A stretch of 64,000 nt of DNA. It comes from a virus. The DNA is taken from IMG/VR virus record IMGVR_UViG_3300045988_118131, one strand, 5' to 3'. Below are positions 982-63,111 of the stretch, in pieces. Position 1 is the first letter of the stretch. The number at the start of each line of letters is the position of its first letter. The position numbers and the translations under genes are program-made. The notes under the pieces were generated by a model, which made no database searches, was not told the DNA's origin, and saw only the letters and a list, made by a program, of their open reading frames with translations.

Positions 982-3752
982 TACAGTTTTAAACTATTCT
1001 TAATTAGTGATGCAGAATAATTAGAAATTCCTCTTATAGTTTTATTACCCTCTGTTATAGACAGCCTTAGTAATTTATTAAACTCTTTCTTGTCCTGAAG
1101 TAATTTCTTATTATATTCTCTTATATTCTGTAGTGCTACCCTCTCTCCAAAGCTTAGAGAACCGCCCTTCTTAAGAAATACAGAAGGTTTTCGTCTTCTA
1201 GCCATAATATCCTCATAGCCGCGATTTGTTATTTCTCTGGCTTTCTCGGTCATAGCTCTTCTTATTCTAAGTTGCTCCTCTGGAGTTTTAGCATTTGCTA
1301 GTTGGATTTCATATGGAGATAGCTCATTATTATATATTTGGCTCCATTTATTTCTAGTCGTTTCTAAATCTAGATTTCTATTCCACTCATTAATCCCTTC
1401 CAGCCTTTGCTGTTTACCGAATAGCCAATTAGCCAAATTTTGACCTCTCTTAAGACCTTTAGCTCTTTCAAAAGCAGCTTTAGCCTCTTGAGCAGATGCC
1501 ATTCTAAGTTTATTTTGATTGGCGTTTTGGATTCTAGATAGCGTATTGGTATTTTGAACTTCTTGTGCCCTCTGGGAAGTTGTATTATAGGTATCCAAAT
1601 TGGCTAATCTCCCTCTTTCTTCCTGACCTACTGCAGCGGATTCAGCCTCTAGTTGTTGTGCAAAGTTTCTAACTGAATCACTTGTAGCAGCTCTAGCTCC
1701 AAGTCTTCTAAACTTATTAGCTGCATTTTGATAAAACATCTCCATAGGGAGATTATATTGAACCTTAGAATATAGTGTGGGAGCGTCAGTTAGAGCAATT
1801 TGTGGGTTATACTTTTGTCTATTATTGAACCATTGAGTGAGTCCAAATCTTAAATCGCCTATATTTTCTGAAGATAGTCTTATGTTAGGAAGTTTAGATG
1901 GATTTATTTCATTTCCAGAAATATCTTTAATTTTCGAAAACGTTTCAGAAGTTGAACCATTTAAAGAAGAATTATCCAAATTTGGCTGAATGTTCTCTTT
2001 AGATGGTTGCTGAGCCATTGGTCTTATTCTCCATCCTCCATGAGTTGCTTTATAAAACTTCAACCCATTTTTATTAAGCTCTGTATTGTATAGTTGAGCT
2101 ATTTCATCAGATATTCCTCTACCTAAAGTTCTTTGTATAGTCATATTTCCGAATCTTCCATCTTCTCCCAGGTTTGGTCTATCTCCGCTATTTCCAACTC
2201 CAGTAAATCCTTTGAATATGGGATTATTAAGACCTCTAGAGTTTCATACAAATTGCATTCTTTTAGTTTTGGGATCGAACTTTATATTGCTTAGAGATTG
2301 TGTTCCCCAGTTATTCAAACTTCCTTCTCCATAAGTGCTTGTATAATTATTATCGTAGAGATCTTCATACCCATTAAACTGCGTATAATTATCTCTATTT
2401 AGACTTCTAAGATAATTTAGTGTTTCTTCTGATTTCAACAAGTCTCTATCTCTATTATAAGAAGAATTCATAGAAGTATTTCTAATACTTTTAGCGGCTG
2501 GATTATATAAAGCTGCTCCACTCTGAGCTTTCACAATTCCTCCATTTTTATAATAATAACTAGGCTTTTCTTGTTTTTTAATAAAAAAGTCTATAAACAA
2601 GTCCTTTATCTTATTAGCTACAGCATTAGTTGCTTCAATTCTCTTATCCTGAAGACTACCCTTTTCTATTATAGGTTGTCCTGGAATTACTCAATTACCT
2701 ATTTTAAGAGGCGGTCTGATTTGAATGTTTTTGTGATTTGGAGTTCAAGGTTCAGATATTCCAGATACTGAAGATTCTCTAAATAAGTCTCTAATAGTGG
2801 CTTTAGTTTCTTCTTTTTTAGCTGCTTCCTCAGCTTGTTTACGTTCTAATTCCTCCATTTTGGCTAAATGTTCTGGAGAATCTTCTTCTGCTATACGTTC
2901 AGATTCTGTCATTTCTCCTAATTCATCCTCCAATTGTTGAGTTTTAATACGAGCCTGCTCTTCAGCTGCTTGTCTTTGCTCTGGTGTCATTCTAGAATAA
3001 TCGTAATCAGCTTTGTTCATAAATAATGAATATAAGTCAGCTTCTCCAACATTGTACAAAGATTGTTTTAAAGAATCTAAGTTCTTAGATTTCAAAGCCG
3101 CCTCAACTTCAGCAAGAGCATTTAAGTATTCATTTTTATCTTTAAATGAAGTTGATGAAAAATCATAATCTCCAGTTAGAGATTCTCTATAATTGTTTAA
3201 AGCATTTAAAGCAGTATCTCATTTATTTTCATTTGCATACCAAATTTCTTTTTCTGCATCTGATTCATTATTATCTTTAAATATATTTTTTCTAAGTTGT
3301 TTTCCATATCCGTAAGTAAAAGATTGCTTTGCAGTATTAGGAATATCTTCTTGACTACTGTTATGTGGAGATAATGAATTAAATACATTATTAAAATATG
3401 CTAAAGCTATTCTCTTCTTGTCTCCTCTTATTTTTCCAAATAAGCCTCTTCTAGCTGGATTACTATCTGTGATAAGTGACTCATCCGAAACAGCATATGT
3501 TCCGTCTACATTTCTTCTAATTTTTCCTTCTTTAAATCCCTGTAAATAAGAGTTCAAGTATCCTCGTATTTCTTCTGCATCCTTACCCTCTATGCCTTGT
3601 TTTTGTAGGTAAGAATCAAAGTTATTATTCATAACTGCATTTTCAAAATCAGAGTATTTATATTGATTAGAACCCCAAATTACTGGATTTTCTTTAAGTT
3701 TATTAGAATCAACCTTATCACCGTTAGCTAATTTTAATATTGCTTGTGACAT
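981..3752 (-). CDS. large hypothetical structural or ejected protein (~923 aa), TGA read-through
   Basis: Track ORFs 981..2144, 2244..2600, 2745..3095 and 3219..3776 share one frame. The gaps contain only TGA (3219, 2745, 2691, 2244) and no TAA/TAG. ATG at 3752, TAA at 981-983. Contains NGGIVKAQSG motif. Confidence 0.7.
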
Positions 3753-3815
3753 TTTTATATAACAAAAAGGGAACATACAGATTACCTTCTATATGCTCCC
3801 TATTAAATTTTAGGA

Positions 3816-4139
3816 CTAGTTTTTAATTCTACCAACAAATTTTCCGCCTTTTCTATAGACTGGTTCCCCCTGTGGAGCAGTTTCAGGTCCACCAGCTTCT
3901 CCAGCCATCTGTTGAACTAACTGTAGGAAACCTTGACACACTTCTAATGCCATTTGTCCGTCATTATTCTGTAATGCTTGAGCAGCCATTTGTGCTAACA
4001 TTAGTAGAGCATCATCTTCTCCTTGAGGTGTGTTTCCGCCTTCAGCCGTATTTCCAGCAGGAGCTGCACTAGTATCGTTTGTTTGTGCTCCCATCGGTCC
4101 ACCTTCCTGTAAAAATTGTACATTTGTTTTAATTTTCAT
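3816..4139 (-). CDS. small Gly/Ala/Gln-rich protein with N-terminal FLQEGG motif
   Basis: Track ORF. TAG stop at 3816 is followed one codon later by in-frame TAA (3810-3812). Confidence 0.6.
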   Translation of the reverse strand: MKIKTNVQFLQEGGPMGAQTNDTSAAPAGNTAEGGNTPQGEDDALLMLAQMAAQALQNNDGQMALEVCQGFLQLVQQMAGEAGGPETAPQGEPVYRKGGKFVGRIKN

Positions 4140-4184
4140 ATACTTAACAATTAATTAATTATTTAGTTTCATCTAGTAAATATG

Positions 4185-4192
4185 CAAATTTA
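4185..4192 (-). promoter_or_regulatory. candidate Bacteroidota-type -7 box (TAAATTTG on minus strand)
   Basis: Matches TAnnTTTG about 45 nt upstream of the 4139 start, in a 120-nt AT-rich intergenic gap. Confidence 0.3.
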
Positions 4193-4260
4193 CAACAATA
4201 GTTGCATATTTAAAAATATTTTTATAATTTTAAAGGAAATCAATTTTATATAGACTATTA

Positions 4261-29499: not shown

Positions 29500-30699
29500 T
29501 TAATAGTTGTTTTGAATTATTTTGTTTAATAATCTATGCTTAGTAGTATATTCTTCCTTACATATAAATTTACTATAATCTGGAGCTATGTCCACTACTT
29601 CATATCATCTTTTAGAAATCATATTAGCATATTTCTTTCTTATATTATAGGATTCGTATTTACCTAAAAACCCATAGTAGCTATTAAGAACGCTTATGAA
29701 ATGCTCAGCTTTTTCTGCTGGATAATATTCATATTTCTCAGCTAGATCGTTGAATTTAAATATAGTTTGATGTAAGTATGCTACTGTCCTGTTTGCAGAA
29801 TATTTAAACTTACCTTTAACTACAGCTCCTATAAATTTACAACCTTTCTTATAATATTGAATGTATAATTTCTTAGGGTGTAAAACTATTTTAAGATTAT
29901 CTTTTAAGTAATTTCTTATTCACGGAACAGAATCTAATAGTAGTTTTTTGTCTTTACTTATTACAAAGAAGTCGTCTACATATCTGCCATAGTATTTGAA
30001 TTTCTCTACCATTAGTTTGTCAAAAGTATTCAAATAAAAATTAGCAAACATTTGACTTGTTAAATTACCAATTGGCAGTCCATAATCTTTGTCTACAGTA
30101 AATAAAGATTTATTAGCTGGCAAATCATCTCACATGAAATCTGGAGATTTTCTAATACAATTGTTTTGAGGGCAATTGTTTACAATTTTTGTTACTAGTT
30201 CTAGTATTATATCAACATCATCTTCTTTATAATTTTCTTTTATAAAAGTTATTAACATTTTCAATAAAGTAGGTTTGTGGATAGACATAAAAAATCCTTG
30301 CAGATCAAATTTAGCAATGTAACAAGGTTGAGTGTAGTTTTCACTACACTCTTTTACTTGTTCATGAAGTCTATTTATTCCGTATAGAGTTCCTTTCTCT
30401 ACTCTACAATTGTAATTGTCTTTTATAAATTCTCTCTCAAATAAGGGTTCTAATCTTAACATAACTAAATGATGTACAACCCTATCTCTGAAATCAGCTG
30501 CAAATACCTCTCTCTTTTTAGGTTTAGTTACTATAAATGCTATACTTCTTCCTATCTCATAAGTTCCATCCATAATATCTTTGTATAGTTTAGCACATTC
30601 TATTTCCCAATTTATTTCAAATTTTAATGCATTACAAGTATTTCTCTTATTTTTTCTGCATTTGTAATAAGCAGAAATTACATCCTCTAAAGCAATCAT
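29500..30699 (-). CDS. DGR reverse transcriptase (399 aa)
   Basis: Track ORFs 30130..30699 and 29920..30123 continue in one frame through TGA at 30130, 29920 and 29605 to TAA at 29500. Motifs are LPIGNLTSQMFANFYL (DGR-type [I/L]GxxxSQ) and GRYVDDFFV (YxDD). Confidence 0.85.
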
Positions 30700-30724: not shown

Positions 30725-31121
30725 ATATCAGGGACGACAGTAGAGGGTGAAGTTCTTATCGTTGTTGTTGATGTTCAGTGTTGTTATCATAAAGCATTTT
30801 ATTCTTTATTTCATATAGTTTTCCATTCTATATGCTCAGACTATATCTTTATCCTAACAGGATAATGGGCGCTCGTGTTAGTATTATGTTCTCTTAAAAT
30901 TTAATTCGGATTTTTCTTTTAAATGGTAAGAGTTTCAACTATTAGTCGTTGAACCTTCTAAAGTTGTTAAGCTCTAGCTTGGCTGCTGATTGTCCATATT
31001 AATAGGAGGATTTCCAGCAATTCACCCATTTTTCTAATATTCATTACTGAATATTGAGGCTTGTTTAGTAAACCACTATCTCAATTCAATTTCCACGCGT
31101 TGTTCGACGAGTACTCCGTTG
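30725..31121 (-). repeat. DGR template repeat (TR), split into two exons (31121-31072 and 30775-30725)
   Basis: The 50 + 51 nt segments align without gaps to the 101-nt VR. All 10 mismatches fall at TR adenines on the minus strand. Confidence 0.85.
30776..31071 (-). ncRNA. group I intron (IA-like, no ORF) inside the DGR template repeat
   Basis: Minus strand carries P (AAUUGCUGGAAA, 31011-31022), Q (AAUCAGCAGCC, 30981-30991), R (GGUUCAACGACUAAUAG, 30939-30955) and S (AAAGAUAUAGUC, 30839-30850). P pairs with Q and R with S. Hairpins at 31036-31055, 30851-30863 and 30812-30834. The 5' exon ends in U and the intron ends in G. Confidence 0.8.
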
Positions 31122-31312: not shown

Positions 31313-31693
31313 TTAAGATGCTTGCATACATAAGCATTCCTCTATATTAGAGAAATGTTGAACGAAACGTGCTTGTTGTTGATAACTTATCAACTCTTTT
31401 TCAAAACTGGCTCTTATAAGTATTTTTACCGTTTCGTATTTAACCCTATATTTTTCTAGACAACTTTGTCTAGTATTAGGATTTTCCCAGTTTTGATGAG
31501 CTAGCGCCAAATAGGCTACTAGCTCACAACTATTATCCATAATTCTGTCTCCTAATGTAAATCTTGAGTTTTTAGGAAACGTTTCTATACATCCTATTAC
31601 TTCTAACATAAACTTATATGTTTTCTCATATAACGGTAAGCTTTCTATCTTACTTTTCATGTCATATTGCTCTTTTGTTTTAGTTTTTAACAA
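31313..31693 (-). CDS. avd: DGR accessory variability determinant (Avd-like, 23S rRNA IVS four-helix-bundle family)
   Basis: Track ORF located between VR and TR. LYEKTYKFMLEV...FPKNSRFTLGDRIMDNSCELV fits Avd-like proteins. The track start is TTG at 31693; the ATG at 31660 is an alternative. Confidence 0.7.
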   Translation of the reverse strand: MLKTKTKEQYDMKSKIESLPLYEKTYKFMLEVIGCIETFPKNSRFTLGDRIMDNSCELVAYLALAHQNWENPNTRQSCLEKYRVKYETVKILIRASFEKELISYQQQARFVQHFSNIEECLCMQAS

Positions 31694-31736
31694 AGTTAAT
31701 TTTACTTATATTGTTTCATTTAATTTCATCTATATT

Positions 31737-33875
31737 TTATAGTACATATCAGGGACGACAGTAGAGGGTGAAGCGCTTACCGCTGCTGATGATGGTACCA
31801 CTATCTCAACTCAATTCCCACGCGTCGTTCGACGAGTACTCCGTTGAAGCCCAATGATAACCTGTAAGCATAGCTGTACCTCCAATTTTACTTAGAGCAC
31901 TATCTACCTGAGATTTATTATTATAAGCTGTTTGTCATTCACCCAAAGCTGGAAGGTATCCTTTTCTATTTTCACCCCCAATATTAATGGACTTCGATCT
32001 ACACCAACCAGCAGCTATATCTTCACTAGAACCTAAGGCAGATATAATTTTATCGGTATTAGAATTTCCGTCATAGTCTAACTTAGCTTCAGTATTATTT
32101 GTAATATTACTTAATCCTGGAACATCTGTACCATATCCACCTCATTGGATACTATCATTGCTGTTTGTCTTATCTATAATAAAACTACATTTATCACTAA
32201 CAACAGCAACTCCTACAGCTTTACTATTGTTACTAGTGTTCCAACTACCTACAGCTGTAAGTTTACCGTCACTATCACAAATATATACACCATTAGCAAT
32301 CTTAGTATAAGTCATAGTTACTGATCTAGATACTTGATTAGCTGTGAAAGATTGAGTAGCTGGAGTATTATAGCCCTTTATATTAGAAGCTGAAATATTA
32401 TAACTAGTTCCAAATGGAATTTTATAGACCTTTGGAGAAGTAGTCTGAGAACCCTGACCGCTCACTGTAATAGTATAACCAGAAGCCCCACTTACATTAA
32501 CAGTTAAAAATTCTGATTGATATGTACCAGTTTCATTTTTACTAGCTGAGTTAGCTGTTCCAGATATAGCATCTGGAGTTTTATAGCCAGTCACTTCAGA
32601 GAAAGTAATATTATAACTAACTCCAAACGGTATCATCAATGTTTTGGAAGTATCACCGTCAGCAAAAGGAACTGGAGTAGAACTAGAATTATACCTTATC
32701 GTAGCTGTAGTGTTTCCAAGACCTTCACTTTGGTTGGATGCCCTGGTAACGGTCAGTTTTGTAGACTTATATTCTCCAGATTTGCTCATGGAGGCGCCTG
32801 CAGCAGTATCTGATATAACTGAGGGTTTTGTATAGTTAGAAATTTCTGGGAAAGTGATAGTAAATTCGCTTCCAGTTGGCACATTTATAGATTTAGTCTC
32901 TTTTCCATTAAATTGCAACTGATGATCTTCACTATCAAAATTTACAGTTACAGTTAAAGAGCTTAGCTCATCTGACTGATTAGATGTAACTTCTATAGAT
33001 AATACAGTAGTGTTATAAGATAATGTTGCCGTTCCAGAAGTGCCTTCAGCTATTTGTGATAGAGGATTAGGAGTTTTATATCCTTCAATATTTTCTCCAG
33101 TTATAGTATATTCAATTCCGGTAGGAATATTTACACTTTGAGGAGTATTAGTCCAATTGATCTCCTTGCTTACTTTATCATAAGATAATGTTAACTTTAA
33201 ACCATTTAAAGCAGAATCTGGCTGAGACTGATTAGAAGTTACTGTGATTGTAGTGAGTGTAGTCTGATACTCCGAATTAATTGTTCTTGTATTTCCTGCG
33301 ATAGCTGTAAACTCTTGAACATCTGGAGTTTTATATCCTTCAATAGCCTCACATTCTATTGTATAGCTTACATTTACTGGAATTGATGCAGTTAGTGGAA
33401 CTCCACTCCAAGTTAAAGTTGTGGTGTTGTCTAAATATTTAATATGAATTTTAACTCCCTCTAACTTAGCATCTGATCCTTGATTGGATGTTAAAGATAG
33501 AATTAGAGTTTCATTAGCTAATCCTCCACCACTTCCTGCTATCTTCCAATCTGCCTTATCTTTTTTTAAATCATATAGTTTGTAGAATACATACTCTTTT
33601 TTTTCTGTATCATAATATCTTGCTTCATCTCCTATACAGAAGGTATATGTTACTCCTTCTATAATATAAGTTAAGGTATTCTCTCCTGGAACAGATTCTA
33701 GTGTTGGAATGGGGTGTGCTAAACACTCTACTCATTTTCCACTTTTTCTATTATACATCTTTCCATCTTCAGGAGCGTCTGGAAACTGTTGAACACCTAT
33801 TTGTGAAATTGGCAAATACTCTTCTTCGGGAGTATGACCATCCCACTGAGGATTAGGAATTTTAAAAACTGCCAT
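31737..33875 (-). CDS. DGR target: receptor-binding fiber with Ig-like repeats and C-terminal CLec/DUF1566-like variable domain (712 aa)
   Basis: ATG at 33875. Frame fully translated and open except TGA at 33732, 32142, 31935, 31806 and 31749. TAA at 31737. C-terminus ...GYLPALGEWQTAYNNK...GYHWASTEYSSNDAWELSWDSG... is typical of DGR-diversified lectin folds. Confidence 0.8.
31746..31846 (-). repeat. DGR variable repeat (VR) at the 3' end of the target gene
   Basis: 101 nt colinear with the ligated TR exons. There are 3 + 7 substitutions, each opposite a TR adenine. TR encodes N-rich AAC codons (GNINNNDKN) where VR encodes GTIISSGKR. Confidence 0.85.
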
Positions 33876-62842: not shown

Positions 62843-63039
62843 AATGATTTTATTTACCTAATTCCCATAATGGAATTACACCCTCACTATTGGTATAATT
62901 CCTGTTGGAGTATAATACATAGGTTTACTAAATGTTTGTATTATCCAACTTCCAGCTTTCTTTACAATTCTTTTTATTGTCTTCATAACTGTAAGAATTA
63001 AGTTAATAAATATGTTTATCTAATAGATAATTAATCTTG

Positions 63040-63111
63040 CGCTTCATGTAGGATTCGAACCCACGTATTAACACTTTAGAGATGTTCGCCTAGCCACTCG
63101 ACCAATGAAGC
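63040..63111 (-). tRNA. suppressor tRNA, anticodon CUA (reads UAG)
   Basis: Manual fold: acceptor GCUUCAU/AUGAAGC; anticodon arm AACAU-CUCUAAA-GUGUU; T arm GUGGG-UUCGAAU-CCUAC; G73. 72 nt. Confidence 0.75.

Follow-up and report, generated by a model that had tools for sequence, protein, structure and literature searches.

A group I intron interrupts the template repeat of a diversity-generating retroelement in human-gut phages

We analysed a diversity-generating retroelement (DGR) in a 64,000-nucleotide stretch of viral DNA, IMG/VR virus record IMGVR_UViG_3300045988_118131, referred to as the window. The template repeat (TR) of this DGR is split by an insert. We identify this insert as a group I intron, since it exceeds the gathering score of the covariance model, has a U.G pair at the 5' splice site, ends in G and folds into helices from P1 to P9.1 that covariation supports. 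The variable repeat (VR) in the target gene corresponds to the two TR pieces joined without the insert. A preliminary description of the window had reported this arrangement from the letters of the DNA. We confirmed that observation at the same coordinates, and the interpretation given there, namely that the insert is a group I intron and that the VR represents precisely ligated exons, is supported.

On the minus strand, the 101-nt VR (31846-31746) aligns colinearly with TR exon 1 (31121-31072, 50 nt, 3' end GAUAGUGGU) and TR exon 2 (30775-30725, 51 nt, 5' end AACAUC), which lie 296 nt apart (31071-30776). There are 10 mismatches, three on the exon 1 side and seven on the exon 2 side of the junction, and all are located at TR adenines; only A-to-G changes were found between exon 1 and the first half of the VR. 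The boundaries of the insert are unambiguous, because the flanking intron bases mismatch the VR. As had been described, U (31072) is the last base of the 5' exon and G (30776) that of the insert, which contains no open reading frame (ORF), the longest stop-free stretch in any frame being 34 codons under genetic code 4 or 11.

The preliminary description had suggested a scan with the Rfam family RF00028 and covariation modelling with related genomes, and both were performed. When the whole window was compared with 4227 Rfam families, RF00028 was the sole match other than tRNAs. It extends from 31081 to 30823 on the minus strand and covers the full-length model (71.5 bits, E = 3.6e-16; gathering score 50). 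The conserved splice-site U of the model aligns with 31072, the base at which VR colinearity stops. The P (31022-31011), Q (30991-30981), R (30955-30939, P7) and S (30850-30839, P7') elements were found where they had been placed. The remaining elements comprise the internal guide sequence AAGCC (31062-31058), P2 (31055-31036) with a GUAA loop, the 5' strand of P3 (31030-31023), a P7.1/P7.2 insert, P8, P9, P9.1 and the terminal G. In P1, U31072 pairs with G31060 as a U.G pair, flanked by G-C, G-C on one side and U-A, U-A on the other; the last three bases of TR exon 1, GGU, pair with GCC of the guide sequence. The alignment to RF00028 shows a large insertion between P7 and P3'. Introns of subgroup IA carry P7.1/P7.2 at this position, and the extensions of the window intron may be of the same kind. 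With P7.1/P7.2 present, the label "td-type IA" given in the preliminary description is plausible. The intron core is 76-82% identical to introns of crAss-like phages across approximately 60-95 nt; the search for close relatives in GenBank phages returned only such short intron-core matches, in crAss-like and other phages.

Further lineages were obtained by collecting homologues of the reverse transcriptase (RT) and fetching their contigs. A homologous intron is present at the homologous TR site in five further DGR lineages, whose RTs are 57-83% identical to that of the window. These are L098 (RT 83% identical; intron 293 nt; RF00028 75.2 bits), L415/L418 (57%; 251-252 nt; 81.9 bits), L423-L427 (about 60%; 263 nt; 62.6 bits), L421 (58%; 214 nt; 50.2 bits) and L422 (61%; 219 nt; 36.5 bits, below the gathering score). 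The shared insertion site is located past the third codon after a conserved Trp, in the context GGT/AAC or AGT/TC (the slash marks the site). In all six lineages, the intron ends in G directly before the exon 2 sequence of the VR.

The structure was evaluated on alignments of these introns. RNAalifold, unaided, recovered P1, P2, P3, P4, P5, P6, P6a, P7.1, P7.2, P8, P9 and P9.1 from the introns of the window, L014 (a recombinant relative described below), L098 and L415. Pairs were counted on the same four-intron alignment over 72 named pairs, with P7 added as a pseudoknot. In this structure, 98.9% of the cells were paired and 13 pairs were changed on both sides; sliding the partners by 1-3 columns gave 0-2 such pairs, and none of 500 shuffles reached the observed values. 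An alignment of seven sequences contained 22 pairs with compensatory changes. Compensatory changes are located in P2, P3, P6a, P7.1, P7.2 and P8. P4 is fully paired and invariant in the four-sequence alignment, and the L2 loops are GNRA tetraloops in three of three cases (GUAA, GCAA and GAAA). Of the features named in the preliminary description, the pairing of P with Q (P4) and the P2, P8 and P9 helices were recovered in this fold analysis of homologues, and R and S (P7) are fully paired in the counted structure. P7.1/P7.2 forms a covariation-supported nested helix pair in the window, L098 and L415; the segment is also present in L418 and L423, which were outside this pair count, and is absent from the shorter introns of L421 and L422.

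The P1 helix connects the intron to its TR exon. In the seven-sequence alignment, the pair between exon position -3 and the guide sequence covaries, being G-C in four sequences and A-U in two, and the U.G pair at the splice site is kept in six of the seven, L422 being the misaligned one. The exon and guide sequences pair as GGU-GCC in the window, ACAGU-GCUGU in L421, GCGGU-GCUGC in L422 and CAGU-GCUG in L423. These comparisons point to a ribozyme that has probably been kept functional in this particular exon context.

We compared genomes that share the intron and differ in the VR. Relatives were chosen as loci encoding exactly the same accessory variability determinant (Avd) protein; ten such loci from different projects were returned, and the identical Avd is recorded in 134 blocks. 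All ten loci showed the 613-nt spacing between avd and the RT gene, the intron (with one single-nucleotide polymorphism in one locus) and identical TR exons. These ten independent assemblies, together with the window and L014, gave a set of 12 genomes with the same intron and an almost invariant TR, and this set contained 12 distinct VRs. Of the 167 differences between these VRs and the spliced TR, every one falls on a TR adenine; the exon 1 side accounts for 67 of them and the exon 2 side for the other 100, and 30 of the 38 TR adenines were mutated. The VRs diverged pairwise at 12-22 of 101 positions, compared with 0.06-0.3% per site in the intron, avd, the RT gene and the next gene. The common ancestor of the 12 genomes already carried the intron; therefore, the VR has since been rewritten repeatedly, in each case from the ligated exons. 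In L423-L427, five contigs with one identical TR and intron carried four distinct VRs, with 18-21 differences per VR. Mutagenic homing is ongoing in these two lineages, with a hypervariable VR between invariant flanks. The preliminary description had argued from A-to-N substitutions on both sides of the junction that the VR was templated by ligated exons. The population data bear this out; the two-sided argument alone did not exclude a late arrival of the intron.

The same pattern was observed in the other lineages. In every contig that includes the VR, this repeat equals the ligated exons with adenine changes on both sides of the junction, and the VR/TR differences at A amounted to 9/9, 20/21, 17/17 and 19/19. 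The only non-adenine differences seen were a T-to-G change in L424 and L426 and a C-to-A change at VR position 78 of L415. The T-to-G change is at the first nucleotide of TR exon 2, directly past the splice junction, and the two contigs share an identical VR; it could have arisen by chance, through selection or from an error of the RT where the exons are ligated.

Several assemblies are broken at the repeats. One IMG/VR contig of the window phage, 175,639 bp long, stops inside the VR, as is common for assemblies in heterogeneous regions. Assemblies broken inside the VR or TR exon 2 include IMGVR_UViG_7000000317_000001 (which ends at window position 31764), and L422, L419 and L420 at their starts. 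These breaks are consistent with heterogeneity of the VR within samples; because of them, many DGR contigs contain only one of the two repeats.

The TR of the window itself has been altered. At positions 30751, 30750, 30745 and 30744 of exon 2, the window has T, T, C and T, where all relatives have A, so that the codons AAC ACC AAC have become TTC ACC CTC; the adenines are kept in all 11 relatives and in the IMG/VR contig. The VR of the window has the same four bases as the altered TR, at sites that are hypervariable elsewhere. The seven exon 2 differences counted in the preliminary description are valid against the window's own TR, whereas 11 adenines differ when the ancestral TR is used. The four changes, all at adenines, resemble the trace of an event in which the 3' end of the template was overwritten by mutagenised cDNA or by the VR. 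The four bases shared with the VR are as expected if the VR of the window was copied later from its own altered TR. The junction of AAGAAC with TTCACC is absent from both parent repeats, and a k-mer mis-join is therefore unlikely. Such an overwrite leaves fewer sites for diversification in the window.

We surveyed the distribution of split TRs by self-BLAST and an R/S-motif screen in about 160 DGR loci; this denominator is approximate, as many fetched stretches contained no VR or TR. Only the window lineage and L098 were positive, and the approximately 158 further loci from IMG/VR and JGI metagenomes had neither a split TR nor an R/S motif pair. Two candidates, L118 and L174, were rejected as false positives arising from tandem repeats. 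Scans with generic P/Q patterns gave 240 unrelated group I introns, one of which, in L415, adjoined a DGR RT; in L200, a weak RT match (26% identity) was located 4 kb from an intron. The closest intron-less lineages, L015, L017, L428, L429 and L430, have uninterrupted TRs of the same family, and their RTs are 55-62% identical to that of the window. In neighbour-joining RT trees, which carry no support values, the intron-bearing RTs form one clade with one intron-less subclade inside it. This topology fits either one gain and one loss of the intron or more than one gain.

In whole-locus Rfam scans of L415, L418, L421 and L422, even with an E-value threshold, TR introns were missed that score 50-82 bits in searches of about 400 nt. 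The misses are due to the speed filters, which lose AT-rich introns. Therefore, negative whole-locus scans are unreliable in AT-rich DNA, and routine annotation would miss these introns. L415, which is a contig of an 'Intestinibacter' metagenome-assembled genome (NZ_JBJDXL010000325.1) and probably phage DNA, carries two more group I introns just downstream of the RT gene, at 3723-3932 and 4047-4250 (RF00028, 67.6 and 85 bits).

Between the window and L098, the intron is 88.6% identical, compared with 56% for avd, 59% for the spacer, 78% and 60% for the two TR exons and 80% for the RT gene. L014 (logan SRR16124341) was considered as an independent lineage and rejected; it is a recombinant that, except in part of the RT gene, is 99-100% identical to the window, and it provides no independent covariation. 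Its equivalent of window 29615-30500, the middle and C-terminal part of the RT, is only 63-89% identical to the window, and its RT protein is 96% identical to the L098 type. This mosaic indicates recombination between lineages within the RT gene and shows that such cassettes recombine. The conservation of the intron could also reflect lateral exchange.

The window phage is Lera-like, and a published counterpart of the cassette is found in phage Lera (PV725988, 179,624 bp), a Zeta crAss-like phage that uses code 4 and has CTA and TCA suppressor tRNAs, described in 2025 (PMC12386605). The gene lengths of Lera/ct1yV3 (804, 999, 1200, 354 and 2139 nt) and their spacing equal those of the window, a match that rests on the lengths and spacing in Table S1 of that paper. 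The 2139-nt gene, named tail fiber protein in Lera, has the length of the window target gene, and code 4 and a CTA suppressor tRNA are common to both (PMC12386605). In Table S1, TR1 is placed at RT+26..+74 (49 nt) and TR2 at RT+364..+438 (75 nt), together with a putative TR3 (PMC12386605). TR1 corresponds to exon 2 of the window, and TR2 corresponds to exon 1 with its flanks. The table shows neither an intron nor any other feature in the 289 nt that separate TR1 from TR2, and the text describes the TR2-VR2 and putative TR3-VR3 pairs as possibly decayed (PMC12386605). As far as this table goes, the intron of this cassette has been overlooked in print. Our full-text literature search, with most subscription journals outside its scope, returned no natural intron-containing TR. 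The preliminary description had stated that no DGR with an intron-split TR was known; this holds for natural DGRs in the searched literature, but TRs carrying the td intron have been engineered, and the two halves of the Lera TR have been published as TR1 and TR2.

We explain these observations by a self-splicing TR precursor that feeds the RT and Avd, with the intron as a passenger, and assign to this explanation a probability of roughly 0.88. The TR region would be transcribed as a precursor. According to the structure, the covariation and the product, the intron would fold, its guide sequence would pair with the end of TR exon 1 to form the U.G pair at the splice site, and it would then excise itself and join the two exons of about 50 nt. 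The predicted junction of the spliced TR is GAUAGUGGU joined to AACAUCAAC, or GAGAUAGUGGU joined to AACAUCAACAAC in its extended form, with the TR adenines unmutated. The ligated RNA would be the only useful template, and the RT and Avd would copy it into adenine-mutagenised cDNA that takes the place of the VR in the 3' end of the tail-fibre gene. This outcome can be seen in the VRs, which equal the ligated exons and are changed only at TR adenines on both sides. Productive diversification would consequently require splicing. The intron is most likely a tolerated selfish passenger that entered the TR of an ancestral gut-phage DGR and was then inherited with the cassette; it may also have been exchanged by recombination with the cassette, and its guide sequence has co-evolved with the TR exon. 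The intron contains 42% A, so that cDNA made from unspliced RNA would bring a mutagenised and probably dead ribozyme into the target gene and would be selected against. No intron-containing VR was found among the VRs compared.

That the TR precursor self-splices and that the RT and Avd copy the spliced RNA is strongly favoured by the sequence comparisons and by analogy with engineered DGRs. In the five lineages with a VR, the junction is exact at the U of the P1 U.G pair and at the terminal G, the canonical group I splice sites, despite intron lengths that vary from 214 to 296 nt. An engineered TR tagged with the td intron behaves in the same way: in the Bordetella phage, splicing of the intron precedes cDNA synthesis, and no product is obtained with splicing-defective mutants (PMC5703328). 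The alternative that dispenses with splicing holds that the RT copies exon 2 and then switches templates across the structured insert to exon 1, or that the two pieces are independent TRs, TR1 and TR2, for adjacent VRs. Reverse transcriptases are able to switch templates, and the table for Lera gives TR1 and TR2 separately (PMC12386605). Against this alternative stand the exact junctions, the covariation of the guide sequence with the exon, the contiguous and scarless halves of the VR, and the full RF00028 match of the sequence that separates the TR pieces, and we consider it very improbable.

An insertion of the intron into a dead DGR, after the VR had been diversified from a TR that is now disrupted, would leave a VR matching the ligated exons in any single genome. 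This relic hypothesis is rejected by the population data, in which 12 intron-bearing genomes with flanks differing by less than 0.3% per site have 12 VRs that differ at 12-22 of 101 positions and only at TR adenines, with the same pattern in L423-L427. In addition, the VR of the window follows its own mutated TR, and the intron helices are kept by compensatory change across lineages. We give it hardly any credence. The least probable alternative is an assembly artefact. Metagenome assemblers do break or mis-join at VR/TR repeats, and several of our contigs end in the VR or TR, but the same architecture recurs in over 20 assemblies made independently by different projects and with different assemblers, as well as in the published Lera genome.

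A different question is whether the intron has been co-opted and is kept by selection. It could gate or tune diversification, assist folding or maturation of the TR RNA, or protect the cassette. Splicing might be coupled, for example, to GTP/Mg2+ status or to the infection stage and thereby serve as a checkpoint or timer by which the TR RNA is licensed for reverse transcription; the split into two 50-bp pieces might shield the master template from VR-TR recombination or from cDNA homing into the TR. The retention of the intron at one common TR site by six or more lineages with RTs only 57-83% identical, the compensatory changes that maintain the ribozyme fold, and the higher conservation of the intron than of every other cassette part between the window and L098 speak for this, and the loss of four adenines from exon 2 of the window shows that TRs do get overwritten, so that a protective role is conceivable. 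On the other hand, the sister lineages L015, L017, L428, L429 and L430 function without the intron, with uninterrupted TRs and A-mutated VRs. Zeta crAss-like phages are generally rich in group I introns (PMC10136315, PMC12386605). Conservation of the fold is expected for any intron whose loss of splicing disables a useful host function, and the conversion tract in the window stops at a long distance from the intron and hence shows no barrier effect. Taken together, it is unlikely that the intron is a selected part of this DGR clade. Dependence of diversification on splicing as a regulatory device is a point that we infer.

Several points weigh against the explanation by a self-splicing passenger intron. 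P7 is fully paired but invariant, and covariation neither supports nor contradicts it. P1 comprises only 3-5 exon base pairs, and a P10 pairing with the 3' exon, sought by eye, gave no convincing candidate. Both the occurrence and the rate of splicing, as well as its timing with respect to reverse transcription, are inferred from DNA alone, and the status of passenger is a default rather than a finding. Moreover, no other part of the cassette is as well conserved between the window and L098 as the intron, a pattern that could result from selection for function or from recent lateral transfer.

The DGR cassette extends from 33875 to 29500 on the minus strand, in the order target gene with VR, avd, TR exon 1, intron, TR exon 2 and RT gene. 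The target gene (31737..33875) encodes a tail-fibre protein of 712 aa. It forms a single open frame only under code 4 (TGA = Trp), with in-frame TGA at conserved Trp positions, and a target gene of identical size, 712 aa, was called in the relatives. The VR occupies approximately its last 35 codons. A Pfam scan of the C-terminal 186 aa of the target gave no match; the paper on Lera presents a C-type lectin-like model (PMC12386605). The avd gene (31313..31660) encodes 115 aa from ATG. Its product matches Pfam PF22296 (bAvd) with E = 2.4e-7 and 31.7 bits, which is under the curated cut-off of 40; its position and size are typical for a DGR, and the identical protein has a precomputed bAvd match on record. 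A spacer of 190 nt separates avd from TR exon 1, and 25 nt separate TR exon 2 from the RT gene. The RT gene (29500..30699, 399 aa) contains three in-frame TGA (Trp) codons, and its translation shows the motifs LPIGNLTSQ and YVDD. The protein matches Pfam PF00078 (RVT_1) with 52.9 bits and has 6908 homologues at E <= 1e-20; those looked up lie in avd-TR-RT cassettes. IGxxxSQ- and YxDD-type motifs are markers of DGR RTs. The use of LPIGNLTSQ/YVDD-type motifs as such markers is supported by the paper on Lera (PMC12386605).

The VR and TR share their last 19 nt and diverge past CCCTGATAT. A weak, AT-rich 5-bp hairpin, CTATA-AAA-TATAG (31730..31742), read from the sequence and given here without a comparison with chance, starts 4 nt past the VR. 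It may be a candidate counterpart of the stem-loop that flanks the initiation of mutagenic homing (IMH) site in other DGRs. A second VR for this TR was not found in the window, and a scan for promoters and terminators gave nothing over background. The sole suppressor tRNA of the window (63039-63111, minus strand) has the anticodon CTA, which reads TAG, though it is TGA that is recoded in the target and RT genes. Lera is described as having both suppressor tRNAs, CTA and TCA, yet recoding only TGA (PMC12386605).

In its gene order, its Avd, the IGxxxSQ and YxDD motifs of its RT, the location of its VR in the 3'-terminal part of a gene for a receptor-binding protein and the strictly adenine-specific VR/TR differences, the cassette resembles canonical DGRs such as that of BPP-1 and the target-avd-TR-RT cassettes of gut phages. 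Unlike those, its TR is discontinuous in DNA and would need an extra RNA-processing step before reverse transcription. TRs tagged with the td intron are a standard DGR assay (Naorem et al. 2017, PMC5703328), and the passage of that article on the tag cites a 2008 Mol Cell paper (PMC2703419) for it. As in the present VRs, only ligated exons reach the cDNA in the engineered BPP-1 TR, and the spliced product is adenine-mutagenised; that construct, however, carries an artificial T4 intron with its own exon tags, which was inserted to prove the RNA intermediate (PMC5703328). The window intron is instead a natural one that immediately adjoins TR codons on either side; it is conserved across lineages, and its guide sequence is fitted to the TR.

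The ribozyme belongs to the same family, RF00028, as the group I introns of phages, such as those of T4 td, nrdB and sunY and of crAss-like phages, e.g., near the dUTPase of Carjivirus communis. Those introns interrupt protein-coding genes, often together with homing endonuclease genes, whereas the window intron is ORF-less and resides in a non-coding RNA. It has an untranslated host RNA and ribosome-independent splicing in common with the group I introns of bacterial tRNA, rRNA and tmRNA, but its host is the template of a retroelement, the spliced product of which would be reverse-transcribed and written into DNA elsewhere. A TR RNA that is reverse-transcribed in cis may possibly serve as an entry point for an intron by reverse splicing. 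If true, this would provide a natural case of spread by reverse splicing, a route that has long been postulated for group I introns.

The finding thus combines a known DGR with a known class of intron rather than defining a new kind of system, and extends from one locus to a conserved family of TR introns. The association is not a one-off, as it occurs in at least six lineages with a co-evolving pairing between exon and guide sequence. Templates of this kind will be split, truncated or missed by DGR-finding software that assumes the TR to be contiguous. The compact (214-296 nt), ORF-less and DGR-compatible ribozyme could serve in engineered DGR mutagenesis that needs a splicing-dependent switch. 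An obligatory step of ribozyme folding and splicing before use by the RT would constrain models of when and where the RT and Avd engage the TR RNA. As a natural counterpart of the intron-tagging experiment, the split TR provides culture-independent evidence for an RNA intermediate in abundant uncultivated phages of the human gut.

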